A stretch of DNA of 64,000 nucleotides from Desulfatiglandales bacterium (lineage in GTDB: Bacteria > Desulfobacterota > DSM-4660 > Desulfatiglandales > Desulfatiglandaceae). The notes beneath the pieces were generated by a model. The model searched no databases. It was not told where the DNA came from and saw only the letters and a list, made by a program, of their open reading frames with translations. The position numbers and the translations under genes are program-made. The DNA lies in the NCBI GenBank assembly GCA_963662465.1, contig OY759599.1:3552001-3616000 (forward strand). The letters are read 5' to 3'. Position 1 is the first letter of the stretch, and every line of letters begins with the position of its first letter. Below, in pieces: positions 11,048-54,171 of the stretch.

Positions 11048-12178
11048 ATGGAACTTCTGATCACAATCGCCTATTTTTTTCTTGTCCGCCTGATATTCTT
11101 CGATTTCAAATTGATGAAGTTCAACCTGTTCTGGAAATTTATTGTTTTCGGACTCTGGGTGGGGGCTCTATTGACGGAAATACTCATGCTGGGTCAATTT
11201 ACCCCCTACAGCAAGGAGGCCTTCGTTCAATCCTATGTGGTACAGATGGCGCCCGAATACGGAGGCCGGGTCAAGGAAGTTTTTATTACCTCCAATACCC
11301 CCATTAAAAAAGGCGACCCGCTCTTTCAGATGGACCCGGAGCCCTGGCAGAACAGGGTCGATGAATATGAGGCGCTTCTGGCATCCGCCGGAACTACCGT
11401 TCAGCAGCTGGGTCAGCAGATTGTGGAGGCCAGGGCGAATGGGGCACGCACCCGGGCGAATCTGAAGGGGGCACTTGCAAAGCACGAGATGATTTCAAGG
11501 GCGGCGGAAAAACAAGCCGTATCCAGAATCCACCTTGAAGAAATTGAACAACGGGTGGCGGCACTCAGGGCGCAACTCCAGGCAAACAAGGCGACCCTGC
11601 AAGAGGCGCAACTGGCCTTTGACTCGGAAGTCGGAGACCAACACACTGGCATCGCGGAAGTCCTGGCCAAACTGGCCACCGCAAAATACAACCTGAAAAA
11701 TTCCATCATACGCGCCCCATCGGACGGGTATGTTTCCAACCTGCAACTCTATCCAGGCGCCTTCATCCGCATCAAAAGCCCGGTGATGACCTTTATCAAC
11801 AGCGAGCAGTACTGGATTGCGGCCAAATTGGACCAGCGGGGCATTCAGAGAGTTAGCGTGGGAGATCATGCGGAAATTGCCTTTGATATGTATCCCGGGA
11901 AGGTTTTTCCCGCAAAAGTGGTCAGCGTCATCTGGGCCAATGGCAACGCTCAGGGCGTTCCCAGTGGACGGATTCCCAGGGAAGGCACTGTTAGCGGCGG
12001 CTTTGATTTTATGGTGCGGCTTCATTTGACGGAAAATCATCCGGACTATCCGGTCCGGTTCGGGGCCAGCGGACTGGTGGCGGTATTCACCCATGAGGCC
12101 CCCGACTTTCTGGTGTTGCTGCGACAGATTGAAATCCACTCGGAAAGTTATCTTAAATATCTTTTCAACCCATTTTAA
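11048..12178 (+). CDS. HlyD-family membrane fusion protein (YibH-like)
   Basis: N-terminal TM, lipoyl half-motifs (VKEV...KKGDPLF; IRAPSDGYV), coiled coil. Confidence 0.88.
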   Translation: MELLITIAYFFLVRLIFFDFKLMKFNLFWKFIVFGLWVGALLTEILMLGQFTPYSKEAFVQSYVVQMAPEYGGRVKEVFITSNTPIKKGDPLFQMDPEPWQNRVDEYEALLASAGTTVQQLGQQIVEARANGARTRANLKGALAKHEMISRAAEKQAVSRIHLEEIEQRVAALRAQLQANKATLQEAQLAFDSEVGDQHTGIAEVLAKLATAKYNLKNSIIRAPSDGYVSNLQLYPGAFIRIKSPVMTFINSEQYWIAAKLDQRGIQRVSVGDHAEIAFDMYPGKVFPAKVVSVIWANGNAQGVPSGRIPREGTVSGGFDFMVRLHLTENHPDYPVRFGASGLVAVFTHEAPDFLVLLRQIEIHSESYLKYLFNPF

Positions 12179-12221
12179 ATCATCATGAATTGATTTTCGG
12201 CGCAAGAAGGGTAAAACGGCA

Positions 12222-13682
12222 ATGTTCAGGGCAAGGACGACCATTCCAATTATCACATTTTTGATAGCCATCGCCTTTTCATCGAGCTGCGCGCCTGTCG
12301 GGCCCAACTACCGGAAGCCGGAAATCAAAACCCCGGATGCATGGCATGAAAAGGTGACGGAAGAGATGTCGAAACAGTCCGGCGCCTCTCTTCAAACCTG
12401 GTGGACCATTTTTGAAGACCCGCTACTAAACGATCTCATCGAGCAGGCTCGCCAATCCAACCTGAATCTGAAAATTGCCCTATCCGGCATTGCCGCATCG
12501 CGCGCCCGTCTGGGTATTGCCTCCGGCCAGGAACTGCCAGATGCCAATGCCCTGGGGTCCTTTTCCCGATTCAAGCACAGCGACAAAGGCCCACTGAAAC
12601 AACTGGCCCCCACGAACGGATTTGACGGCCAGAATATGTTTATGGTGGGAGTGGACGCATTATGGGAAGTTGATGTGTTCGGCAGAATACGACGTCAGAT
12701 CGAAGCCGCGGGCGCCCAGTATGAAGCCTCTATCGAAGACTATCGGGACGTTCTGGTAACGCTTTTTGCCGATGTGGCCCTGGCCTATGTGGAGATACGC
12801 TCCTGTCAACGTCAAATTGAATGCGCCGTAACCAATGCCGCCATTCAACGCAAAATGCTGGAGTTAACCCGGGCCCGTTACGACAGCGGCATCGCCTCCA
12901 GGCTGGATACCTCCCAGGCCATGAGCAATTTGGCCAATACGGAAGCGGCCATCCCCCCCCTGACCATCCAGCTCAATGCAGCCATCAACAGACTGGCTGT
13001 TCTAATAGGCAAGGATGCCGGCGGCCTTCAGCACAAGATGAAAAAACCCGAACGTATCCCCTTTCCAAGAACGGACATCAGCGTCGGCGTCCCGGCAGAC
13101 CTCCTGCGCCAAAGACCGGATATTCGAATAGCGGAAAAACGGCTGGCAGCTCAGACCGCGTTGATTGGCGCCGCCACGGCGGACCTCTATCCCCGATTTG
13201 CCATTTCAGGGTTTTTCGGCATGGAAACCGGAAACTTTTCAGACCTGGGAGACGGCTCAATTCTGGCGTGGGGGGTTAAAACGCCTATCAAATGGAATTT
13301 TTTCAGTGGCGGCAAAACCCGCAGTAACATCGCCCTTCAAAAGGAAATTGCTCAACAGGATCTGTTCAAATATGAAAACACGGTACTCACGGCAATAGAG
13401 GAAGTAAGAAATGCCATTGTGGCCCACGCTCAGGAGAAGATTCGGCGCAACTGGCTGCTTGCGGCAGTTACAGCAACCCGTGAAGCCGTGGATCTGGTCA
13501 TTGTGCAGTATGAAACAGGGCTAACCGATTTCAACAACGTCCTGGTGACCCAAAAAACCCTATTCAACCAGCAGGTTCAGCTGATCGCCAGCCAGGCCGG
13601 CGTGGTGCTTAACCTGATCCGTCTCTACAAAGCCCTTGGGGGCGGGTGGCCCATTAAGGATTCGCCGGAATCCAGCCCATGA
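12222..13682 (+). CDS. Efflux outer-membrane lipoprotein (NodT/TolC family)
   Basis: Lipobox SSC, PADLLRQRPDI, LYKALGGGW. Confidence 0.92.
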   Translation: MFRARTTIPIITFLIAIAFSSSCAPVGPNYRKPEIKTPDAWHEKVTEEMSKQSGASLQTWWTIFEDPLLNDLIEQARQSNLNLKIALSGIAASRARLGIASGQELPDANALGSFSRFKHSDKGPLKQLAPTNGFDGQNMFMVGVDALWEVDVFGRIRRQIEAAGAQYEASIEDYRDVLVTLFADVALAYVEIRSCQRQIECAVTNAAIQRKMLELTRARYDSGIASRLDTSQAMSNLANTEAAIPPLTIQLNAAINRLAVLIGKDAGGLQHKMKKPERIPFPRTDISVGVPADLLRQRPDIRIAEKRLAAQTALIGAATADLYPRFAISGFFGMETGNFSDLGDGSILAWGVKTPIKWNFFSGGKTRSNIALQKEIAQQDLFKYENTVLTAIEEVRNAIVAHAQEKIRRNWLLAAVTATREAVDLVIVQYETGLTDFNNVLVTQKTLFNQQVQLIASQAGVVLNLIRLYKALGGGWPIKDSPESSP

Positions 13683-43477: not shown

Positions 43478-43684
43478 GAAAAGTAGGCGTAGGGACTACT
43501 CGAACAGTAATTGGACGAGCGACACTCCGGAAAATACGTCGTATCAATGCTGGGATTCACCGCCCGCATCATAACACTTCTCTATCCCCGTATCCGGTAA
43601 TTTGTAATCCCCGGCCACCACGCCGCCCCACAGACCCGTCAACAGCACCAGGCAACACCCCATCTCCACCACAACCTTTTTCAT
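43478..43684 (-). pseudogene. Decayed DGR target 3 (paralog of target 1) with internal deletion and partial VR3 (43478-43524)
   Basis: MKKVVVEMGCCLVLLTGLWGGVVAGDYKLPDTGIEKCYDAG is joined to NPSIDTTYFPECRSSNYCSSSPYAYF; shares the RBS region with 53599-54171. Confidence 0.85.
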
Positions 43685-43727: not shown

Positions 43728-43803
43728 GTAGGTGCGGCTTTAGCCGCACAGCCAAACCCCCAAACGACCCCGATCCCCACTGTGCGGCTAAAGCCGCACC
43801 TAC
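43728..43803. repeat. GTAG-type REP doublet (REPIN-like)
   Basis: GTAGGTGCGGCTTTAGCCGCAC ... GTGCGGCTAAAGCCGCACCTAC. Confidence 0.8.
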
Positions 43804-43823
43804 AATCGCACTTGCTGCTTCCC

Positions 43824-44759
43824 CTATTGCGCCTCAGCCAACCGTTTCTCATCCGCCCATCGGCGCATCTCATCCAGGCTCTCCGCATCAAGAAACCGTT
43901 CCCCCAATTCCTCTATGGCGTCGGCATTCAAACCCTCGAACATGGGTTTGGCCATATCAGCGCCAACTCGAAAACGTTTAGCAATCAGCCGGCATAAAAG
44001 CGATATGCTCCCATCTTCTCTCCCAATTCTCTCGACACTCGTCACGTAAGGCATCTTTTTTCCCTCCTCATACTTTGACAATTCTTTCCAAAACAACCGT
44101 TCATGAGCTGCTGGAAGAGCCATCAGCCAATCAATGAACCGAAATAATTTGACGATATCCGCGCGGCTGTAACCGGCTGTATAGAGCTCTTTCACCAAAG
44201 CAAATTTGCGCTTGAAAAGTTCATCAGGGTCCTTCCCGCTTTCCAAAACCGACAAATGGGCGCGAACCACCACAACAAATGGATTCCCTTCTGCATCCGA
44301 CAAAAGCTCGGGCTTTGCCTGGTAATCCAGAAGCTTGACAACCGGGTAACGAAACCGCATTTCGCAGCCCCATAGGCTATAGGTGAACGCCTCGGGACGC
44401 CATTTCTTCGAATCATCCGCCAGAACCGCAAGGCTTACGACCCGCCGGTGGTACCGATCAAAAATCCGGTAATGGTAAACAAACATCCTTTCTTCAAAAT
44501 CCGTGTCCACCTGAGCCTGCACCTCGATATGCACCAGTATCCAGGCCTCCAGACCATCCAGAAGCCATATTTTCACCAGTTTATCCACAGTGCGCCTGCC
44601 CACCTCCGCATCGCGGGTAATCTGCCGAAGTTCCTTCTCCAGAAACGCATAGCCCCTTTCCCAATCGATCTGTTGGTGGGCCTCTGGGAAAAACAGCGAC
44701 ATGAACGGCTCGAAATAAACTTCCAGGATTTCTTTCCAGGGCGAATCAAAATCAGTCAT
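43824..44759 (-). CDS. Rpn/YhgA-like PD-(D/E)XK protein, copy 1
   Basis: DSPWKE, VDKLVK, LVHIEVQ, FEERMFVYHYRIFDRY, MPYVTSVERIG. Confidence 0.8.
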   Translation of the reverse strand: MTDFDSPWKEILEVYFEPFMSLFFPEAHQQIDWERGYAFLEKELRQITRDAEVGRRTVDKLVKIWLLDGLEAWILVHIEVQAQVDTDFEERMFVYHYRIFDRYHRRVVSLAVLADDSKKWRPEAFTYSLWGCEMRFRYPVVKLLDYQAKPELLSDAEGNPFVVVVRAHLSVLESGKDPDELFKRKFALVKELYTAGYSRADIVKLFRFIDWLMALPAAHERLFWKELSKYEEGKKMPYVTSVERIGREDGSISLLCRLIAKRFRVGADMAKPMFEGLNADAIEELGERFLDAESLDEMRRWADEKRLAEAQ

Positions 44760-45232
44760 GTTGAAATACCTCTTAAAAGCAGTCCGATTGTTGGCTTATG
44801 CTTGTTTTTAGGCTGGAGAAACCGTTCCCTGCTGTTTGATCTGCATGAAAAAAGCCTCATGTATAGTAACTTTTAATACTTTACTTTCTATCAGATCATT
44901 TCCAAAAGTCAATGGAGCTTTTTCGGGGGGTTCGGAATAAAGTGAGAAGAGGGGTTTTCAGCCTCGACCGGTACAGAGAGACCGAAAGACCCATGGAAAA
45001 ACCGACAAAACCAATGTGCAGGGTAAAAGACATCCTAGCGACATCCCTTTGCGCAATTTAGGCTGGCCCCCGTCCCTACCGGCTTTCTTTTCTCCATAAA
45101 AGCCCTCGCTCCTCCCTGTGATCATCCAATTCCCGGAATATGGCAGCGAGTGCTTCCTTATGTTGACCTAAATCACATGACAAGGGGGTCTATTATCCCC
45201 TCTCTCCCCTTCCCACTATCTCCGAAACCTCC

Positions 45233-48200
45233 CTACTGACTCATCTTCACAACCGACCCTTCCCTGGCTTCCATCTTGCTCTTAACCACGATATCGCTCG
45301 ATTTAAAGGTGGCCCGCGCCCCGCTTTCAATCACCACATTGGGACCTACGGTAAGCGATGTCGTGCCCGTACAGGTGCAGTCGGTGCCAGTCTTGAAGGT
45401 CTCGTCATGGACCGTCGGGTTGGCGCCGGAGCAATCGGGGCAACCGGCGGTGGTGAGCGTCTTGAAGGAACGGTTTTCCCCGTAGGCAGTGCCTGCGCTG
45501 TTGGTGGCGTAGGCACGGACGTAGTAAGTGGTCTCCTCGCTCAGTCCTGTGATGGCACAGGTAAACGCACCCGTACCCGATCCCGATGGGACCGGATGGT
45601 CACTGACAGTGGGATCTGTTGACGTACTCCAGCAGACGCCTCTGGCCGTCACCTCCGGAGCCCCTTCTTCCGTTGAAACGGTGCCGCCCCCGGTGGCGCT
45701 GGTGGAAGCGATGTCCGTGGGGGCCTTGGTGGTCACAGTGGGAAGGCTCTCTCCAGCTTCTTTCAACAGTACGGTCGAGGTATTATTCTCCTTGCTGTAT
45801 TCGGGGGTTTCATCATTTGCATTGACCACCAGATAGATGCTGGTAGCAGCGGTCACATTCTCCACAAACAACTCCCCTTCCATAGATACGCCCACCGCCA
45901 GGGCTGAAATATCCACGGTTTTGAGGATCTCCCCATCGACGGTGTTTTTGCGAAACACCAGGTGGGTGGCGCCCGACGGCAGGACCCCGGTGTTTCGCAC
46001 CCCGGCCTTGACAGAAAACTCTGTATCGGACACCCGGGTTTTGGAAACGGAAACCAGGCCCAAATCCGGAAGGGTCATCACCCGGCTCGCCTTGTTGTTG
46101 GTCCGGTCCCCGTCTTCAAAGGTGTTATCGGGGTCCACGATCACGTACAGGGTCAAAGGGGATGCCGTGGCCGCGGGAACCGTCCAGGTCAATTGAACCT
46201 GTTCGCTTGCGCCCGGCTCCAGGGTCTGGGCCGTTTGCGTGCGACCGATCTCGGTACCGCCGGTCGCCGGATCTCCATTGTAGAAGGCCGCAGGAATACT
46301 GTTTTCAGGGATATCGCCGGCATTCACCACATTGACCGTAAGGAGTACCGAATTCCCGGGGGCAGGATTCCCCGGTGCCGCCAGGAAAGTGCCTGCACCC
46401 ACGCTCAGATCGCCGGTCATGGCATATTGGGCCATATACAGGTCCGTCTGGATGAGGACAGGCTGTTCGTAGGAAACGGTTGCGCCGTAAGCCGTCCGTC
46501 GGCTCATCTGTTCCACCTGCACCACGGTTCGGTCATAGACCACCATAAGGGTCTTTTCCGCGGAAAAGGCTGCGGTCATTTGCTGTTCCGTCTCCGGGTC
46601 ATTCGTTAACTGCCGAGGGGCTCCCCACATGTCAAAGAGCGGGTCGTAGAACACCGCAAACAGGTCCGAACTGAATTCCAACGGCTCGGCCCATACCAGG
46701 GCCATGCGGCCGTCGGGCGTGTGGGCCATGGAAAAATCCGCCAGATTGCTGGAATATTCGCCTTCCAGAATGGTGGTCACCGCGTTTGATTGAAAATTCT
46801 TCTCGCTTACCAGGTCGCCGCCCCGCAGCCAGGCCATAATGAAATCCCCGCTGGGATCGATGGCCAGTTTCGGGTTTTCATCGGGCACGCTGTCATTGGT
46901 CAACCGTTCGAGAGCGCCCCAGGCGCCGGAGGAATAGGTCATGGAAAACAATTCCCGATCATCCACGGTTTCCGGATCATTATCCGCATCCAGGCTCAGC
47001 ACCGCATACCCGGTTGTACCGTCGTAAGCCAGGTCGTATTTGATCATGCCGTAGGGAATTTCCCCTGCCTGCCGCGGGTCGGTCCAGGAAGTGCCATTCC
47101 AGCGGGACCACCACAAGGTGTTGGGGGCTTCGGCATCACCCCGAATATCGTTTGCCGTATTAGCGATCCATACCAAAAGCACATCATCGGATGTGGGACC
47201 TGACAGTCTCGGGCTTCGGTCCAGGTAGTTGTTTTGGGTCAATTTTGAAATGTCCGTCCAGCCGGCGCCGGCATCATAGCGGGCCACGGAGATCTCCAGG
47301 TATTTCACCATATCTTCAAACTGCGCGTCATCGGGCATGACCTGCCCCTCATTTTCCCAGGCCAGGAGGCTGTTGCCGTCTGAATAGGCTTCCAGATCGG
47401 AGTTGAAATCCGCCGTGCCGTCATCTGAAACCGCCGCATACTCGCTCCAGTTGGCGCCGTTCCAGGCTGAGGATACCAGGACGGTGCGGTTGAGGGCAGT
47501 GCGGGTCGGATCGTCATAGAGCCATGTGAGCCGGACATTTCCGGTGGCGGCCGAGAGACACGATTCCGAATAGGGAAAGACCTCTCGCTGTACCGAGGAA
47601 AGCCTGGCAGCTCCTGCCTGGCGCGTGATGATTCTGCCGGCTGTGAAATCGCCGTATTCGGTGCTTTCCAGGTAGTTTCGCGAGGTCCATCGGGGTGTAA
47701 CGGGGTTGTTTTGAACAGAAAACATCATACTGTCGGCATCGCCGCCGTACTCCCAGTCCCAGCGGAGCAGCTCGTTTTCCCAGCTCCACAAAAAAAGGTA
47801 AGCGCTGTACCCGCCGTTCAGGTATATGGTCAGATCGGCAAGGGTGGGCTCTTGAGGAAACTGAAGACCAAAGTCGGCGCCGCCCCCAATCCAGCCCTCC
47901 ACCGCAATGACCGAATCGGCCCCAACTCCAAGGGAACCCCTGGCGTATGGTGAAACGCCAAATATGCCATTGATTTTGAAGGGACTCAAATCCACAATCC
48001 CCAGAGACGCATCAACACTTGCATTCACTGAAGCCTTGCCGTACATGGGGATCAACACGGGACCTACCGCCACAACAAAAGGCCAGGATTCCTTGGCCTC
48101 TCCCGAGCCCTTAATAGTCAGATATCCTTCCCAGTCCCAGGCGCATGAAGAACTGAAGTATTCCGCCTCAGCATCGAGGGCCACCTTGAACTCGACTTTC

Positions 48201-49747
48201 TTGCCCATAATTTTGAACTCCGCCAGCTTGCCGGTCTCAAGAGATGCCTCGCAGGTTCCGTGGCTGTCCACCTTGGCGCTGATGCGAGGCAGCCATTCCA
48301 GTTTGAATGCCTTATCACCGAACAGAGGAATCTCTGCGGGAATCACGCCCACGTCAACACCTGCCTTAATTCCATCGCTGTTAAAACCCATTTCAGTTTG
48401 GTAGAAAAACCCATCGCCCAAATCCAGTCCTTTTAACATCACGGGAAAGGGCTTGCCCGCCACCACCAGAGGCGCTTGCTTTTCAGCGGAAACGGCCCCA
48501 TCCGAGGAAACGGCCTTCACCTTCAAGCCGTTGCAGTTCCCGAATTCAGAGCCCATATTGAAGGTTTTGGATGCGGTCGTTCCGCCGGTGGCCACTTCAT
48601 GGGTGGTTGTGGGGGTAATGAAAAGTACCTTCTGCGGTGTGTGTCCGCCCCAGTCCACATTGGCGGTGTAGGTGGCATTGTAGTCCACCCCGTCAAGGTA
48701 AACCACATCCCCGTCATAGCGGGAAGTGATGTCCGTCACCACGATGCCGCCCGAAGAAGCGGTTTGCAATCGAAAATCCTGACGGACGGTTGCGCCGGAA
48801 GGGAGATACACGGACTGCACCGTATCCGCATAACCGGATTTCTTGACAGTAACGGTGTGATCCCCCGACGAAAGGCCTTGAACCGTATACCGGCCACTGC
48901 CGTCGGTGGTGGTTGAAAACCCGGTGCCGCTGACGGTGGCGATGGAAAGGGCGCTGTTGTCGGATTTGTCGTACACATACCCTTCCAGGGTTGCCGTACC
49001 TCCGCCGGTGCTGGTAATTTCATAAGTGACTACATTGCTTTTCCCGCCCGTTCCGCCGTCAATGGCCCACCATTCATACTGCCCTGCCGGGCGATCCCAG
49101 GGCACGGTGTAGGAGATTTCAAACCGGCCGTAAGCATTCACCCCCACCTCCTGGGTGGGGAATTCGGAGCCATCCGGCTTTTGGAAATGCAAAACAGCAA
49201 CCGTATAAGGGGTGAACCCCATACCCCACTGGGTCAGAACACCGCTGGGAGATGCGGACAACGGGGATTGGCCGATCAAATAATCAAATGATCCAGATGG
49301 TCCGGCGCGCACACAACGAACATAGTAGTGGTTGGCCTTATTGTTGAAGTCCACGTAGCCGTAGTAGAAAAAGACGGACCACGCGTAGTACGAATAGTTG
49401 GCGTAGGGACTACTCGACCAGTAAACGGACGAGCGACACTCCGGAAAATACGTCGTATCGATGGCGGGATTATAACGGTCCCAGGCAACCAGCGTCTCCA
49501 GCTCCCGCACATTGGGCAGTCGCCAGTCCGAATGTCCGCCCGGGGAAAGGTTCTCGCAATAGTCCAGGGCTTCCTCCCAGGTGCGGGTCATCCCATCGTC
49601 GCTCTGCTGCCACATCAGGCCGGTCACGGAATCGGAAACCGTGCCGTTGCCGTTGTCGTTGAACGCGGCAAACACGGTTCCGCCGCTGTACAGCAGAATG
49701 CTTGCCAGCAAAACACACGCGCACGCCAAAGTTCTTTTTCTTCTCAT
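45233..49747 (-). CDS. DGR target 2: 1504-aa secreted multidomain protein (signal peptide, N-terminal DUF1566 with VR2, Ig/carboxypeptidase-regulatory-like, CARDB-like x2, FN3-like, Cys-containing C-terminal domain)
   Basis: DNGNGTVSDSVTGLMWQQ...DWRLPNVREL...YWSSS...AW.V.F...YVRCVR at about aa 30-148; TTYYVRAYATNSAGTAYG near the C-terminus. Confidence 0.88.
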   Translation of the reverse strand: MRRKRTLACACVLLASILLYSGGTVFAAFNDNGNGTVSDSVTGLMWQQSDDGMTRTWEEALDYCENLSPGGHSDWRLPNVRELETLVAWDRYNPAIDTTYFPECRSSVYWSSSPYANYSYYAWSVFFYYGYVDFNNKANHYYVRCVRAGPSGSFDYLIGQSPLSASPSGVLTQWGMGFTPYTVAVLHFQKPDGSEFPTQEVGVNAYGRFEISYTVPWDRPAGQYEWWAIDGGTGGKSNVVTYEITSTGGGTATLEGYVYDKSDNSALSIATVSGTGFSTTTDGSGRYTVQGLSSGDHTVTVKKSGYADTVQSVYLPSGATVRQDFRLQTASSGGIVVTDITSRYDGDVVYLDGVDYNATYTANVDWGGHTPQKVLFITPTTTHEVATGGTTASKTFNMGSEFGNCNGLKVKAVSSDGAVSAEKQAPLVVAGKPFPVMLKGLDLGDGFFYQTEMGFNSDGIKAGVDVGVIPAEIPLFGDKAFKLEWLPRISAKVDSHGTCEASLETGKLAEFKIMGKKVEFKVALDAEAEYFSSSCAWDWEGYLTIKGSGEAKESWPFVVAVGPVLIPMYGKASVNASVDASLGIVDLSPFKINGIFGVSPYARGSLGVGADSVIAVEGWIGGGADFGLQFPQEPTLADLTIYLNGGYSAYLFLWSWENELLRWDWEYGGDADSMMFSVQNNPVTPRWTSRNYLESTEYGDFTAGRIITRQAGAARLSSVQREVFPYSESCLSAATGNVRLTWLYDDPTRTALNRTVLVSSAWNGANWSEYAAVSDDGTADFNSDLEAYSDGNSLLAWENEGQVMPDDAQFEDMVKYLEISVARYDAGAGWTDISKLTQNNYLDRSPRLSGPTSDDVLLVWIANTANDIRGDAEAPNTLWWSRWNGTSWTDPRQAGEIPYGMIKYDLAYDGTTGYAVLSLDADNDPETVDDRELFSMTYSSGAWGALERLTNDSVPDENPKLAIDPSGDFIMAWLRGGDLVSEKNFQSNAVTTILEGEYSSNLADFSMAHTPDGRMALVWAEPLEFSSDLFAVFYDPLFDMWGAPRQLTNDPETEQQMTAAFSAEKTLMVVYDRTVVQVEQMSRRTAYGATVSYEQPVLIQTDLYMAQYAMTGDLSVGAGTFLAAPGNPAPGNSVLLTVNVVNAGDIPENSIPAAFYNGDPATGGTEIGRTQTAQTLEPGASEQVQLTWTVPAATASPLTLYVIVDPDNTFEDGDRTNNKASRVMTLPDLGLVSVSKTRVSDTEFSVKAGVRNTGVLPSGATHLVFRKNTVDGEILKTVDISALAVGVSMEGELFVENVTAATSIYLVVNANDETPEYSKENNTSTVLLKEAGESLPTVTTKAPTDIASTSATGGGTVSTEEGAPEVTARGVCWSTSTDPTVSDHPVPSGSGTGAFTCAITGLSEETTYYVRAYATNSAGTAYGENRSFKTLTTAGCPDCSGANPTVHDETFKTGTDCTCTGTTSLTVGPNVVIESGARATFKSSDIVVKSKMEAREGSVVKMSQ
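49299..49438 (-). repeat. DGR variable repeat VR2 (codons 104-150 of target 2)
   Basis: Matches the surviving TR except 14 substitutions in AAY codons plus 1 at the TR break, all at TR adenines. Confidence 0.95.
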
Positions 49748-49750
49748 CTT

Positions 49751-51072
49751 TCAAACCTCCCGGCAATTTTTCATCTGTTCCAATCCACAAATCATTTTCC
49801 CCCGAAAAAGCTTCACCAGCCTGCGATGCACCATCCCATCCAGCGTCTTTTCCGCTCGAATCAGGGCAACATGATACCCGGCATTCAAAGCCTTCATCAG
49901 AAAACGGCCCAGCCACCGCCGATGGAAGCCGCACCCATACCGAAATCCTCGAAGACCCAAAACCGGTTTGAGACCCAAAACATTCCGGGCCAGCCACGCC
50001 TGATAACCATAAAACTCATAAAAGAGGCCGACCGGGAAAAAAATCAGCGCTTTTGTTTCAAAACCTCCCCCGGTCCACAGCGGATAAAAATGCCCCCGGA
50101 CTCCGGGCGCGACCGCGCTTCCCTTTTCAGGCGCCCACCAGCGATAGGCAGCCCGGAAGGTCGCATTTTTTCCCGGCGGCGCATACCTCGGAATAAGCCG
50201 CCCGTCGTCCAGGATAAAAGCGGCCCTCAACACCGCATGTTTTTCAAAAAGCTTCAGTACAAGACCATGCGTATCCGCCCACGAAAAATGCCCGAGATAA
50301 GAGGCTGTCACGGCGCGCAAGGCGTCCATGGTCAAAACAGGGTACTGCCAGGCTCTGATTTCCCGCCCCCTGCCGCTTACAGGAACCGGCTCCGCCAAGC
50401 ATTTTTCAAAATTCGCCAGTTTCTCCTTAAAATGGTTCACCACCCGCCGCCGGGCCAGCACATAACGTCGGCGAACAATATAACCCAAAAAATCAATCCC
50501 CGATGAGACCGGACGGAGGCGGTCCTGCTGCACGTTGGGCCGAAGCAACAGTTCTTCCCTCAAAAACCCTTCAATGGTCTCCCGCCATCTCATCAGCTTT
50601 TGAGGGGACGGATCCAGCAGCAAAAAGTCATCGCAATACCGGATATAATACTTGCATTTCAGCCGATGTTTCACAAACTGATCCAGCTCATTCAAATACA
50701 CATTGGCAAAAAACTGCGAACTGAGGTTTCCGATGGGAAGCCCCTTGCCGGAAGGCACCTTAAAAAGAGTCTTGTGCGGCGGTATGCGCTCCAACAACCG
50801 TTCATTACCCTTGAACCGGTAATCCACGGTGCAATCGTGAAATATCATCACCTGCGTCAGCCACAGCGCATCCTCCCGTTTGATTTTCTTTTTGATGAGC
50901 CGGCAGAGAATCTCCTTGTCCACGTTCATGAAAAACCCGGCCACATCGGCCTTCAAATAGGAGATCCGTTGGGTTCCGTTTTTCGTGGCGCGGTTCAAAA
51001 ACTCCCGGAGCCGAGAAACGCGGCGTGGACGCCCTTCCCTTTCCGGCATGCATAGGAATCATAAATAAACAT
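49751..51072 (-). pseudogene. DGR reverse transcriptase: N-terminally truncated, frameshifted near 51020, with a C-terminal MutS-I-like domain
   Basis: FIYDSYACRKGKGVHA, YLKADVAGFF, GLPIGNLSSQFFANVYLNELD (DGR-type SQ), YIRYCDDF (YCDD at 50627-50638), GIDFLGY. Confidence 0.92.
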
Positions 51073-51080
51073 CTTATTGT

Positions 51081-52878
51081 CAGCAATTCCCGCTTAGATT
51101 CTAAAGGCGCTAGGACAGTACCTTTTGGCATTTCCTTTTCGTAAAGCTTTACGTTGAATGAATAGCCTGAAAAGGCTTTTTTCTCCAATTTTTAAAATAA
51201 AACAGGAATTTTTTTGGCAATTCTCAGAAAAAGCTGGACTTTCAGATCAACTTGGCCGATGATTACTGCCTATGGGAATCAGAAGCCAAAAAGGAAGAAA
51301 AGAGAGAGGCAAGATTGGAGTTCGCAAGCATCTTAATGCAGATGCAATTTTCAAGCGTCTGCATAAAGATTTTTCTGAAGTCTCTGACTGCCGTGAGGAT
51401 CCCGATATTACTATTGCGGATGCCTTGATGTCCGGGTTTGCAATGTTTTCGCTCAAGGAGCCATCGTTGCTTGCCTTTGATGAAAGAAGAAAAACCGATA
51501 GTAATCTTGGGAACATATACCATATTGGAAAGATCCCATGTGACAGTACGATGCGCACCATTCTTGATGAAGTGCTCGCAGAAGAACTTCGGAAACCGTA
51601 TAGGAATATCTTCTGGGAACTGCAAAGGGGAAAGGTGCTTGAACGTATGGTATTTTTCGAAGGTTGTTATCTTCTATCTTTGGATGGAACGGGTTTCTTC
51701 TCATCGAAGAAACTTTCCTCTGATAGTTGTTTGGTAAAAGTATCGAAAAAAACCGGCGAAAAAACCTATTATCAGCAGATGTTGGGGGCAGCAATTGTCC
51801 ATCCGGATTTCAAAGAGGTCATTCCGCTTGCTCCGGAATTCATAGTCAAGCAGGATGGCCAAAGCAAGAACGACTGTGAGCGTAATGCCGCGAAACGTTT
51901 CTTGCAAAAGCTAAAAGAGGAGCATCCCCATCTGCCTATCATTATAACAGAGGACGCGTTAAGTTCGGATGCACCCCACATTGAAGAAATACAAAAGCAA
52001 AATTTTCATTATATTCTGGGAGTTAAAAAAGGAGATCACCATTTCTTGTTTAATCACGTCGAACAAGCGCGGATAAATGGTGACGTCACTGAATTCGAAT
52101 TGGTCGATAAAGAGGATCCGGAAAAAATACATCGTTTCCGATTTATTAACCAGGTACCTCTCAATGCCTCTAACAAGAATATGCTGGTTAACTTTCTGGA
52201 ATATTGGGAAATTACACCGAAAAAAACAAAACATTTTAGTTGGGTGACAGATTTTTTAATAGGAAAGGACAATGCATACCAGCTAATGCGAGGCGGCCGT
52301 GCGAGATGGAAGATCGAAAATGAAACCTTCAATACTCTTAAGAACCAAGGATATCATTTTGAACACAACTACGGGCTCGGCAAGAAGAATCTGAGTGTTG
52401 TTTTTGCGATGCTCATGATGCTGGCATTCTTGGTGGATCAAACTCAACAGCTTTGTTGCCCTCTATTTATAGCCGCATGGCATAAACTCGGCTCAAAAAG
52501 GGAATTGTGGGAACGGATGAGAGCTTTGTTTAGAGATTTTGAATTCAAATCGATGAGGATGCTCTATGAAGCCCTCTATTATGGCGTAAAGTTTCAAGCG
52601 CCAGTTATTCTATATAACAGTGGTTAAATTTGTCATGCCCAAGTTCGCATACAAAAATGCTCTCATTAATAAAAAACTGGAGATTCCGGAAATGGATATC
52701 TCTGCCCTAACTCGTGCTTTTATGCTCTTACTCTTGTCAAAGAAGCTCAACCTGCAAGAAATCGAGGGAGGTAATAGTGGATTTAATACAATTTTTCTGA
52801 AAAGGATCTGATCTCAGGGTTTGTTTTTGAAATATGTTTTTCAAACTCTGTGAGTAAATTCTTGACCGGGAATTGCTG
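51081..52878 (+). mobile_element. Insertion sequence (1798 bp; ISNCY/IS4-superfamily-like) in the DGR TR, with 9-bp TSD TCTTATTGT
   Basis: 12-bp perfect TIR CAGCAATTCCCG / CGGGAATTGCTG; TSD at 51072-51080 and 52879-52887. Confidence 0.93.
51272..52627 (+). CDS. DDE transposase (451 aa)
   Basis: LSLDGTG, KNDCERNAAKR, ITEDAL, GRARWKIENETFNTLKNQGYHFEHNYG. Confidence 0.88.
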   Translation: MGIRSQKGRKERGKIGVRKHLNADAIFKRLHKDFSEVSDCREDPDITIADALMSGFAMFSLKEPSLLAFDERRKTDSNLGNIYHIGKIPCDSTMRTILDEVLAEELRKPYRNIFWELQRGKVLERMVFFEGCYLLSLDGTGFFSSKKLSSDSCLVKVSKKTGEKTYYQQMLGAAIVHPDFKEVIPLAPEFIVKQDGQSKNDCERNAAKRFLQKLKEEHPHLPIIITEDALSSDAPHIEEIQKQNFHYILGVKKGDHHFLFNHVEQARINGDVTEFELVDKEDPEKIHRFRFINQVPLNASNKNMLVNFLEYWEITPKKTKHFSWVTDFLIGKDNAYQLMRGGRARWKIENETFNTLKNQGYHFEHNYGLGKKNLSVVFAMLMMLAFLVDQTQQLCCPLFIAAWHKLGSKRELWERMRALFRDFEFKSMRMLYEALYYGVKFQAPVILYNSG

Positions 52879-52983
52879 TCTTATTGTTGTTGTTCACGTT
52901 GCCGTTGTTGAAATTGACGTTCCACGCGTTGTTCGAATTGTTGGCGTTGGGACTACTCGACCAGTAAACGGACGAGCGACATT
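52879..52983 (-). ncRNA. DGR template repeat (TR), 3' end missing
   Basis: TGT CGC TCG TCC GTT TAC TGG TCG AGT AGT CCC AAC GCC AAC AAT TCG AAC AAC GCG TGG AAC GTC AAT TTC AAC AAC GGC AAC GTG AAC AAC AAC AAT AAG A (14 AAY codons); lies between avd and RT. Confidence 0.95.
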
Positions 52984-53151
52984 GTCCATCCACTTTATGG
53001 CCCGGTAACATCCGGGCCCCACTGCTTTCCGGGACCGTTTAAAACGGCTGCGAAAAGCTGTATGCATCATGCCCCCAAATCGCATGAGGGCGGGACGGAC
53101 GCACCATGAAAAAAGCACGCTTCCTCATCCCGCGGGATGGGAATTCAGGCC

Positions 53152-53544
53152 TTACCGCCGATTGTTCGAACGCTTTACAACCATGCTGCCGGGCTTATTT
53201 CCGCCCGCACTTTTTAACCACCCCTCATTTTGCCGAGACACATTGACCACCTTCTCGGCAAGCTGCAAAAATGTTTTCGGTTTATTGAATGCCTTCACCT
53301 CCCTGGCAATTACCAGGTGGATCTTAATCCTTTCCAGTAATACGCGTAATCTCAAAAGCGCCGGTGTTTTATCTACCAGCGAATTGGCTTCCATAATCAA
53401 GCCCAGCGCATCGTGACACATGCTTCTCAATTCGGTCCCGATGGTGTACTTGTGGTAGCGGGAAAAAAATTTGACCGTATTTTCCACCAGCACCGTCTCT
53501 TCCATCATGGCTTTGAATATGGGGAGATGATCGTAATTCGCCAT
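53152..53544 (-). CDS. avd: DGR accessory variability determinant (four-helix bundle)
   Basis: YDHLPIFK...FSRYHKYTIGTELR...VSRQNEGWLK; 130 aa, basic, directly upstream of the TR. Confidence 0.88.
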   Translation of the reverse strand: MANYDHLPIFKAMMEETVLVENTVKFFSRYHKYTIGTELRSMCHDALGLIMEANSLVDKTPALLRLRVLLERIKIHLVIAREVKAFNKPKTFLQLAEKVVNVSRQNEGWLKSAGGNKPGSMVVKRSNNRR

Positions 53545-53598
53545 ATAACCCTTTAGCCCGAAACGCTTAAATAACCAAAGAAAAAAATAATCCAATAT

Positions 53599-54171
53599 TC
53601 AAGGTCCGGCGCGCACACAACGAACATAGTAGTGGCTGGCCTTACCGTAGCCGCCCACGCGGCCGTAGCTGAAATGGACGAGCCACGCGTAGTCCGAACC
53701 GTCGGCGAGGGGACTACTCGACCAGTAAACGGACGAGCGACATTCCGGAAAATACGTCGTATCAATGCTGGGATACACCCGCCCAAAATCCACAATAGAC
53801 ATTAGTTCCCGCCGATCCGGCAGGCGCCAGTCCGAGTACCCCCCCGATGGAAAGGTCAGGGCCGCACAATAATCAATGGCCTCCTGCCAGGTGCGGGTGG
53901 TTCCGTCATCGGCTTGCTGCCACATCAACCCGGTGTTCAGGTCGGTCACGGTCCCGTTCCCGTTGTCCCGGTAGGCGGGTTGGGGCCCGTCGTATTGCGC
54001 ATCCTGGCCGTAAAACGGCGCCCCGGACTGGGGACAGGGAATTTCTTTACCCGCATCGTAACATTTGTGAATGCCCGTATCGGGTAATTGGTAGTCCTCG
54101 GCCACCGCACCGCTCCACAGGCCCGCCAGCAACCCCAGCCAACACCCCATCGCCACCACAACCTTTTTCAT
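53599..54171 (-). CDS. DGR target 1: secreted DUF1566 (C-type-lectin-fold) protein with C-terminal VR1
   Basis: Signal peptide; LPDTG..CYD, FYGQDAQY, DNGNGTVTDLNTGLMWQQ, DWRLP..EL, YVRCVRAGP*. Confidence 0.92.
   Translation of the reverse strand: MKKVVVAMGCWLGLLAGLWSGAVAEDYQLPDTGIHKCYDAGKEIPCPQSGAPFYGQDAQYDGPQPAYRDNGNGTVTDLNTGLMWQQADDGTTRTWQEAIDYCAALTFPSGGYSDWRLPDRRELMSIVDFGRVYPSIDTTYFPECRSSVYWSSSPLADGSDYAWLVHFSYGRVGGYGKASHYYVRCVRAGP
53603..53744 (-). repeat. DGR variable repeat VR1
   Basis: Matches the surviving TR except 21 substitutions in AAY codons plus 1 at the TR break, all at TR adenines. Confidence 0.95.

Follow-up and report, generated by a model that had tools for sequence, protein, structure and literature searches.

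Most described diversity-generating retroelements (DGRs) place the variable region (VR) at the C terminus of the target protein. The accessible parts of the survey by Wu et al. (2018; PMC5758913) record an internal VR for one CLec2 DGR and N-terminal VRs for three DGRs; they state that the initiation of mutagenic homing (IMH) sequence must overlap coding sequence where the VR is N-terminal or internal; in the same survey the GC-rich inverted repeat behind the VR is not universal (127/372), and a MutS_I domain is reported for three reverse transcriptases (RTs). The C-terminal position has been attributed, in what is accessible of Roux 2021 (PMC8144416), to cis homing elements that need freedom from coding constraint. 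For Bordetella phage BPP-1, the accessible text of Guo 2011 (PMC3240598) gives a 24-bp cis element downstream of the VR as required for efficient homing, and that of Handa 2018 (PMC6182149) gives the flanks of the template repeat (TR) as needed for priming. Here we describe a DGR in a 64,000-nucleotide stretch of a Desulfatiglandales bacterium genome (GenBank assembly GCA_963662465.1, contig OY759599.1, positions 3,552,001 to 3,616,000; herein the window), whose long target gene P0001 (45233..49747, minus strand, an unbroken open reading frame [ORF] of 1504 residues under translation table 11) carries its VR, VR2, at codons 104-150. A further 1354 codons follow codon 150; the gene therefore has substantial coding sequence 3' of its VR. 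We consider P0001 probably to be a genuine second target of a now-dead DGR, with an N-terminal VR in an Lcl_C domain, a layout that recurs in its clade, and 3' signals compatible with coding. The features that make up the finding are all encoded on the minus strand of the window.

The N-terminal-VR layout is rare but already in print, including a DUF1566 case with a MutS_I-bearing RT (Wu 2018, PMC5758913, accessible parts). The closest precedent is the DGR of Candidatus Magnetobacterium bavaricum (FP929063.1; row 18 of Table S1 of PMC5758913), in which, as here, the RT carries MutS_I, the order is TR-RT-target and no GC stem-loop is given after the VR. Its CLec2/DUF1566(ext) target has the VR (11521..11642) near the 5' end of the gene (11121..12554), scored as "internal", and is about 478 residues long with about 300 residues past the VR, whereas the window target runs for 1354 residues past the VR on a different scaffold and belongs to a broken DGR; the 8-nt array reported below is not described for it in the accessible parts of PMC5758913. 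The three N-terminal-VR DGRs of the same survey, compared here by count alone, likewise diversify the N terminus with the IMH in coding sequence. Legionella pneumophila LdtA and the other category "d" DUF1566 targets are like P0001 in being exported surface proteins whose variable domain is of the DUF1566/CLec2 type, and about half of that category carry appended adhesion-type domains (PMC5758913, accessible parts); LdtA has a C-terminal VR on an N-terminally lipid-anchored protein, the reverse of the order in the window. BPP-1, with its target Mtd, resembles the window element in the adenine-specific transfer from TR to VR and in the GC-rich IMH at the VR 3' end, and its required cis element lies within ~24 bp downstream of the VR (PMC3240598, accessible parts), where the window has its array. 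Its VR is C-terminal with a GC-rich hairpin after the stop codon, whereas the window VR2 is N-terminal, lacks a hairpin and is followed by a periodic array inside the ORF.

VR2 (49298..49439, minus strand; CRSS...VRCVRAGP) was delimited by alignment to the TR and to VR1, the variable region of a short second target in the window. A BLAST search of the window with the N-terminal region of P0001 returns three further copies, at 53585-53856, 52880-52981 and 43478-43557 (80 nt). The surviving 5' part of the TR (52880..52982, minus strand; identified by BLAST and VR/TR alignment) comprises 103 nt with 34 adenines and 14 AAY codons; it lies between the 190-residue ORF of the short target and the RT gene, is rich in asparagine codons and reads CRSSVYWSSSPNANNSNNAWNVNFNNGNVNNNNK. 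Over these 103 nt, to which VR2 aligns at 49439-49337, all 15 mismatches of VR2 fall at TR adenines and none of the 69 non-A positions differs; for VR1, 21/21 mismatches fall at TR adenines over the same stretch. The hypergeometric chance of such patterns is 4.5e-9 for VR2 and 2.3e-13 for VR1. The remaining GC-rich 3' part of VR2 (49336-49298), common with VR1 and IMH-like, encodes ANHYYVRCVRAGP. The extent of codons 104-150 given in a preliminary description of this DNA is thus upheld, as VR2 together with the GC-rich tail shared with VR1 runs to 49298.

P0001 follows directly on the RT gene, at the spacing first proposed (3 nt after the RT stop): the RT stop codon TGA at 49753-49751 is followed by AAG and then by the P0001 ATG at 49747, with GGAGG upstream. 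The N terminus resembles a signal peptide, judged by eye, and is followed by the Lcl_C/DUF1566 head (PF07603; residues 35-147, 124.6 bits against a Pfam cut-off of 34.9, profile positions 1-117 of 117), an Ig-like module, a CarboxypepD_reg domain (residues 253-328) and a second Ig-like module. Then come a poorly modeled β-rich region, a β-propeller, two CARDB stretches from residue 1113 on, an FN3-like module and a Cys-rich tail; residues 450-690 and the last 120 residues have no Pfam match. The frame had been described as continuing for about 1350 residues through Ig-like, CARDB-like and FN3-like modules; the length, the Ig-like modules and the two CARDB stretches stand, and the fn3 match stays under its cut-off (22.3 vs 25 bits).

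This arrangement is found again in the same genome, in an apparently intact second DGR (DGR-2, locus L026; C1:401500-412500). There a CHAP+Lcl_C target with a C-terminal VR is followed by avd, the TR, an intact RT (RT2, with RVT_1 and MutS_I) and P0122, a 1091-residue protein with a signal peptide, Lcl_C, CarboxypepD_reg, an LCAT-type α/β hydrolase and TSP3 repeats; the VR of P0122, at codons 110-157 (genome position 407843-407983), shows 19 A-site mismatches and one other. A genome of the same genus (G008) keeps the synteny of DGR-2 on a 4.9-kb contig. Relatives were collected by a scan with an RT alignment, taking one genome per species, which gave 80 loci; of 82 loci examined, 60 yielded TR/VR pairs with a repeat finder based on A bias. 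Of 17 VRs inspected 3' of an RT, 4 are read through into a longer frame, 9 belong to targets that end with the VR and consist of no more than a signal peptide and Lcl_C, 3 are C-terminal in long proteins and 1 is unresolved. The frames that read on extend past the VR by 997 residues in L055, 1175 in L067, 728 in L083 and up to the contig end in L061; the L055 and L067 long targets are of the lipase type and orthologous to P0122. The N-terminal-VR layout is thus not unique, occurring again in the same genome and in at least four further RT-adjacent long targets in other taxa, and it is a recurrent design of an RT clade whose members bear a C-terminal MutS_I domain.

Short and long targets differ by the codon that follows the VR, TGA vs TCT. 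At L062:12250-13500, in a Candidatus Magnetomicrobium metagenome-assembled genome, the linker QSGSFDNLIIS is separated from the VR end by precisely one in-frame stop and leads into a long open frame; the site may be a long target that has recently been split, or one of readthrough. We read the window element as a DGR with the order short target, avd, TR, RT, long target, in which the VR of the long target lies in an Lcl_C/DUF1566 (CLec2-type) domain directly behind a signal peptide. Past mutagenic retrohoming would have written the 15 adenine-specific changes into VR2; the pattern is observed and the mechanism is modeled on BPP-1. In the clade, the gene after the RT opens with a signal peptide and Lcl_C; a TGA closes it where the VR ends, or a TCT there carries the frame on into a passenger. 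The 3' homing signals are compatible with coding: the GC-rich IMH always forms the last codons of Lcl_C, and the 8-nt units that come next supply, in long targets, a linker peptide together with strand one of the following domain.

No GC-rich inverted repeat of at least 6 bp was found within 130 nt after VR1 or VR2 except a GCGCGC palindrome, and the predicted folds downstream of the two window VRs are weak (-11.7 and -5.4 kcal/mol). Behind VR2, inside the ORF, lies an 8-nt periodic element (49271..49297, minus strand), TCT GGA TCA TTT GAT TAT TTG ATC GGC, which encodes the linker SGSFDYLIG; behind VR1 a periodic element (53560..53598, minus strand) lies in 3' untranslated DNA and reads ATATTGGATTATTTTTTTCTTTGGTTATTTAAG. 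The VRs of the window RT's clade have 2-4 tandem 8-nt units, about GNNATTTG, in the 0-40 nt behind the VR, and the TRs lack them; examples are TCTGGATCATTTGATTATTTGATCGG (window VR2), TGAATATTGGATTATTTTTTTCTTTGGTTATTT (window VR1), TCTGGGTCATTTGGTAATTTGGTTATTTCC (long target of L067) and TGATTAGGTTATTTGATTATTCGGTTATTTGA (short target of L067). A strict TTTG....TTTG match within 60 nt downstream occurs at 28/99 VRs, 0/68 TRs and 93/20000 random windows, the rows of the window element being scored as misses because its TR is truncated. Self-identity at lag 8 averages 0.42 downstream of VRs, compared with 0.25 downstream of TRs and 0.26 in random sequence. With a threshold of self-identity ≥0.5 over 40 nt, 45/96 VRs score at offset 0, against 0/66 TRs and 33/3000 random windows; at other offsets the same 96 VRs give 0 at -140, -90 and -45, 9 at +20, 6 at +45, 0 at +90 and 1 at +140. 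By locus, the array is seen in 34 of the 60 with a detected TR/VR pair. All these counts overstate independence, because the loci were chosen by RT similarity and VRs of one locus are paralogous to each other. Where the target is long, the array is inside the ORF and reads SG.F/L.(D/G/N).L(V/I)I(S/G); the Leu of this linker is encoded by TTG in 9/13 cases vs 74/434 elsewhere in the same genes.

The preliminary description had placed the homing signals within coding sequence, as an IMH and hairpin. The DNA it quoted does hold a motif conserved behind VRs, coding or not; the hairpin was not borne out, the feature being an 8-nt periodic array. Since BPP-1 needs a 24-bp element at the same position, we read the array as this clade's equivalent, and whether it would act as the cis homing signal of the clade, embedded in coding sequence in long targets, is in our judgment evenly balanced. 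The wider proposition, that DGRs of the clade would use 2-4 tandem 8-nt units rather than a GC-rich hairpin for target recognition, and that, the units being readable as a linker, a single TGA-to-TCT change would fuse the cassette in frame, is put forward tentatively, at a little short of an even chance. Because the array can be read as a harmless linker (SG.F.D/G.L.V/I.I.S), a TGA-to-TCT change would let a "signal peptide plus variable lectin" cassette join any downstream passenger, and such fusion would explain the repeated origin of N-terminal VRs. What is new here and, in our view, the most interesting product of the analysis is the periodic array behind the VR, along with the single codon by which a short target becomes a long one; in the accessible text of PMC5758913, PMC3240598, PMC6602519, PMC5006420 and PMC8144416 we found GC-rich hairpins only and no description of such an array, and full-text searches brought up no DGR paper on one.

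The strongest alternative is that the 8-nt DNA has no role at the DNA level, encoding a conserved linker in long targets and surviving in short ones as a decaying relic of that coding. It would account for the conservation of the peptide motif, for the fact that short and long forms can be aligned as DNA, and for the scant periodicity in the L083 long target. It fits less well with the presence of the array in many DGRs, candidate phyla radiation (CPR) and gammaproteobacterial loci among them, in which nothing is encoded past the VR of the target; there the units behind the VR have diverged and the period is kept. The confinement of the array to offsets of 0-40 nt, the over-use of TTG for the linker Leu (9/13 vs 17% elsewhere) and the coincidence with the position of the BPP-1 cis element (PMC3240598, accessible parts) also speak for a function in the DNA itself. 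We rate the relic explanation as a real possibility that falls appreciably short of even.

While the VR2 pattern points to past activity, the retroelement itself is broken. The window RT gene (49751..51072, minus strand; defined by Pfam, alignment and contigs) is truncated at its N terminus and has MutS domain I at residues 332-414 (E 2.1e-6; window 49790-50060), as does RT2. Its RVT_1 match (Pfam E 1.5e-10) begins only at position 56 of the 205-position profile, whereas that of RT2, the intact paralogue to which the window RT is 55% identical, begins at position 9; the first ~92 columns of RT alignment A3 are absent, corresponding to ~90 missing N-terminal residues. The ORF as listed spans 49751..51049, and the true frame opens at the ATG at 51072 once a base missing behind 51019 is counted. 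This base comes from Logan short-read contigs of two runs (X1 and X2, one sample), which carry one extra base behind 51019 in 34/34 and 44/44 depth units and restore the RT frame; the window assembly therefore has at least one 1-nt indel error, and a frameshift is ruled out as a further lesion of the RT. Runs X3 and X4, from other samples, have no useful coverage of the VR-linker junction or of the TR/insertion region.

The TR is interrupted by an insertion sequence (IS) of 1798 bp (51081..52878, plus strand; identified by Pfam and genome copies) with an IS4-like DDE transposase of 451 residues (51272..52627, plus strand), the terminal inverted repeat CAGCAATTCCCG and 9-bp target duplications at 51072-51080 and 52879-52887. 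Ten other copies, 99.9% identical, are present in the 8.16-Mb genome, and the IS looks active; 9-bp duplications flank 10/11 copies, including that of the window, the copy at genome position 2835436 lacking them. TR homology stops at 52880, after 103 nt, at the IS edge. With the IS and one duplication removed in silico, TR and RT form one continuous frame, joined at ...NNNNK-MFIYDSYACRKGKG; the TR has lost some 45 nt at its 3' end, including any IMH* (the TR counterpart of the IMH), the region between TR and RT is gone, and a tblastn search of the genome did not find the missing TR/RT piece elsewhere. The RT-side junction lies inside one short-read contig (49430-51108); no contig joins across the IS, and a single low-depth joint of 51594 to 53762 (depth 3.5, side 21) was disregarded. 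The IS is probably not the cause of the TR-RT deletion, as the intact 9-bp duplication argues for simple insertion into an already deleted junction. Neither the TR, which has no 3' IMH*, nor the RT of the window element is thus complete. With no TR 3' end, an RT lacking ~90 N-terminal residues and an IS at that junction, the DGR is, as far as its sequence can tell, dead; the VR2 head would then be frozen and P0001 left with a fixed head. The earlier picture of a head that is hypervariable today is accordingly abandoned.

The second DGR, at 401-412 kb, has an intact RT and an Avd that might still diversify VR2 in trans. RT2 is 55% identical to the window RT, and in both systems the VR is built on an Lcl_C scaffold and has the array behind it. 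Set against this, the window TR lacks its 3' end and the TR-RT interval, flanks of the kind that are needed for priming in BPP-1 (PMC6182149, accessible parts); the TR sequences of the two systems differ; and, as weak evidence, no contig carries an alternative VR2. We therefore regard diversification in trans as very unlikely.

The long frame does not depend on the window assembly. Logan contigs match the window at 45000-46871 and 46866-49328 with 0 differences and 0 gaps, and the junction VRAGP|SGSFDYLIG (49306-49271; AGPSGSFDYLIGQSPL) falls within the matched stretch, which confirms its frame independently; the VR core, 49329-49429, is outside the contigs listed. P0003, a metagenomic protein of 1509 residues, is 76% identical to P0001 over 100% of its length, with Lcl_C at 34-152 and a conserved junction that reads SGSLGYLIGQSP; P0006 (1541 residues, Lcl_C at 37-150, SLH domains at the C terminus) and P0009 (2001 residues, Lcl_C at 77-190) have the same layout. 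The reading of an unbroken frame, including the stretch near 49250-49300 that had been singled out for checking, thereby holds. An alternative is that P0001 joins a short Lcl_C target to a separate downstream gene through an indel in the assembly or the recent loss of a stop codon, with no functional fusion protein. In its favor, the assembly does contain the 1-nt error behind 51019, little more than the codon behind the VR (TGA vs TCT) sets short targets apart from long ones, and L062 has its stop exactly at the junction with open frame beyond. We nonetheless hold it to be extremely improbable: the contigs of both runs cross 46866-49328 without a gap, P0003, P0006 and P0009 show the same continuous architecture, the same fusion recurs in P0122, L055, L067, L083 and L061, and past the P0001 junction there is no start codon, ribosome site or second signal peptide, the Ig-like domain beginning at once.

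The chain downstream of the head is a conserved scaffold. Homologs of the downstream 1350 residues without the DUF1566 head, which the preliminary description had suggested looking for, were found: P0004, P0008, P0014, P0015, P0023, P0032, P0044 and P0090. In metagenome loci of the scaffold family, a scan with the family alignment gave 0/11 with an Lcl_C head. Homologs of residues ~230-1330 bear laminin-G, MG2-like Ig, PKD, MAM and TIG, FG-GAP, PQQ-like propeller or LRR heads instead, and the Lcl_C head can therefore be regarded as an exchangeable module, or binding slot, on a conserved scaffold. An AlphaFold2 (AF2) model of residues 331-1110 (12-row alignment; mean predicted local distance difference test [pLDDT] 69.9) shows a confident Ig-like domain at 331-440, an unreliable β-rich region at 450-690 (pLDDT <50) and a confident β-propeller at ~730-1080. 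The best Foldseek matches of the propeller are the Photorhabdus PLL/PHL seven-bladed lectins (target-normalized TM-score 0.62-0.66) and bacterial sialidases; a PDB profile search returned CARDB-like and Ig-like chains only. The notion of a lectin tip on a long adhesin-like stalk survives in part: Lcl_C is N-terminal on a modular chain of the exported type, but the chain, which contains a β-propeller and whose core is conserved, is more than a spacer, and the last 120 residues of P0001 showed no cell anchor. The SLH tail of P0006 fits a C-terminal anchor that would make the N terminus the distal tip, an orientation that we infer for P0001. An N-terminal head on this scaffold probably places a putative variable ligand-binding site at the end distal to the C terminus.

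Several observations weigh against our reading of P0001 as a former DGR target with a displayed variable head and coding-compatible homing signals. Contigs alone were read and these drop rare variants, so that variation of VR2 among cells, present or past, is not visible in them. Minority letters at 52913, 52916 and 53743 were rejected as variation, each coming from one contig near its end and fitting cross-laying of other repeat copies. The AF2 model of the Lcl_C head (m0ea19b996c47; residues 1-345, 11-row alignment) has pLDDT ~42-58 over residues 20-160 and is poor (~45), and does not support exposure of the variable residues; a PDB sequence search with the head gave one weak match, 8q4e (E 0.0027). 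No anchor or secretion signal was identified in P0001 besides the N-terminal hydrophobic segment, and with the TR 3' end lost, IMH and IMH* are not comparable within the window element. As to the array, its counts carry the dependence among rows stated above, the linker motif is conserved at the protein level too, which is compatible with an explanation at that level or by shared ancestry, and the L083 long target keeps little of the array.

The short target of the window (53599..54171, minus strand; Pfam) encodes 190 residues, a signal peptide plus Lcl_C; its VR1 (~53743-53602, minus strand) has the stop codon directly after VRCVRAGP. An Avd-like accessory gene (53152..53544, minus strand) matches bAvd at E 6.3e-7 and 30.3 bits, under the cut-off of 40, and has the same position as in DGR-2. 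A remnant of a third target (43478..43683, minus strand; BLAST and VR alignment) retains a start and signal peptide like those of the VR1 target and, from the 5' part of the VR, 80 nt that match VR2 at 90% identity, but has an internal deletion and stops prematurely; this decayed gene adjoins one for a DUF4351 protein (43824..44759). A palindromic unit resembling repetitive extragenic palindromic (REP) sequences, TGTGCGRCTNAAGYCGCACCTACAG, occurs in many copies around both DGRs (window 43731-43808; L026 406-5772), and a 159-residue ORF beside such units in L026 may encode a REP-associated tyrosine transposase.

Elsewhere in the genome, tandem Lcl_C domains (two to three) occur in several large ORFs (frames of 1457, 1143 and 562 residues) at C1:6758959-6760750 and 6769350-6780407, one stretch of which is 72% identical to the VR2 region. 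A third RT (C1:1133325-1134167; 344-residue frame) is 29-38% identical to the DGR RTs, and a 439-residue RT frame present in ~14 genome copies may represent group II introns.

Taken with its relatives, the window locus would represent a clade that has solved the coding constraint thought to confine VRs to C termini (PMC8144416, accessible parts). A post-VR array that doubles as a linker would allow a lectin head to be placed at the front of very different exported proteins, such as the propeller scaffold and the LCAT-type lipases. If the array is a recognition signal, it would supply a simple rule for where DGRs of this clade can act, and those who engineer DGR targets within genes would gain a design handle. 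For the source genome, the element would be a fossil and the 1504-residue protein one with a fixed head.

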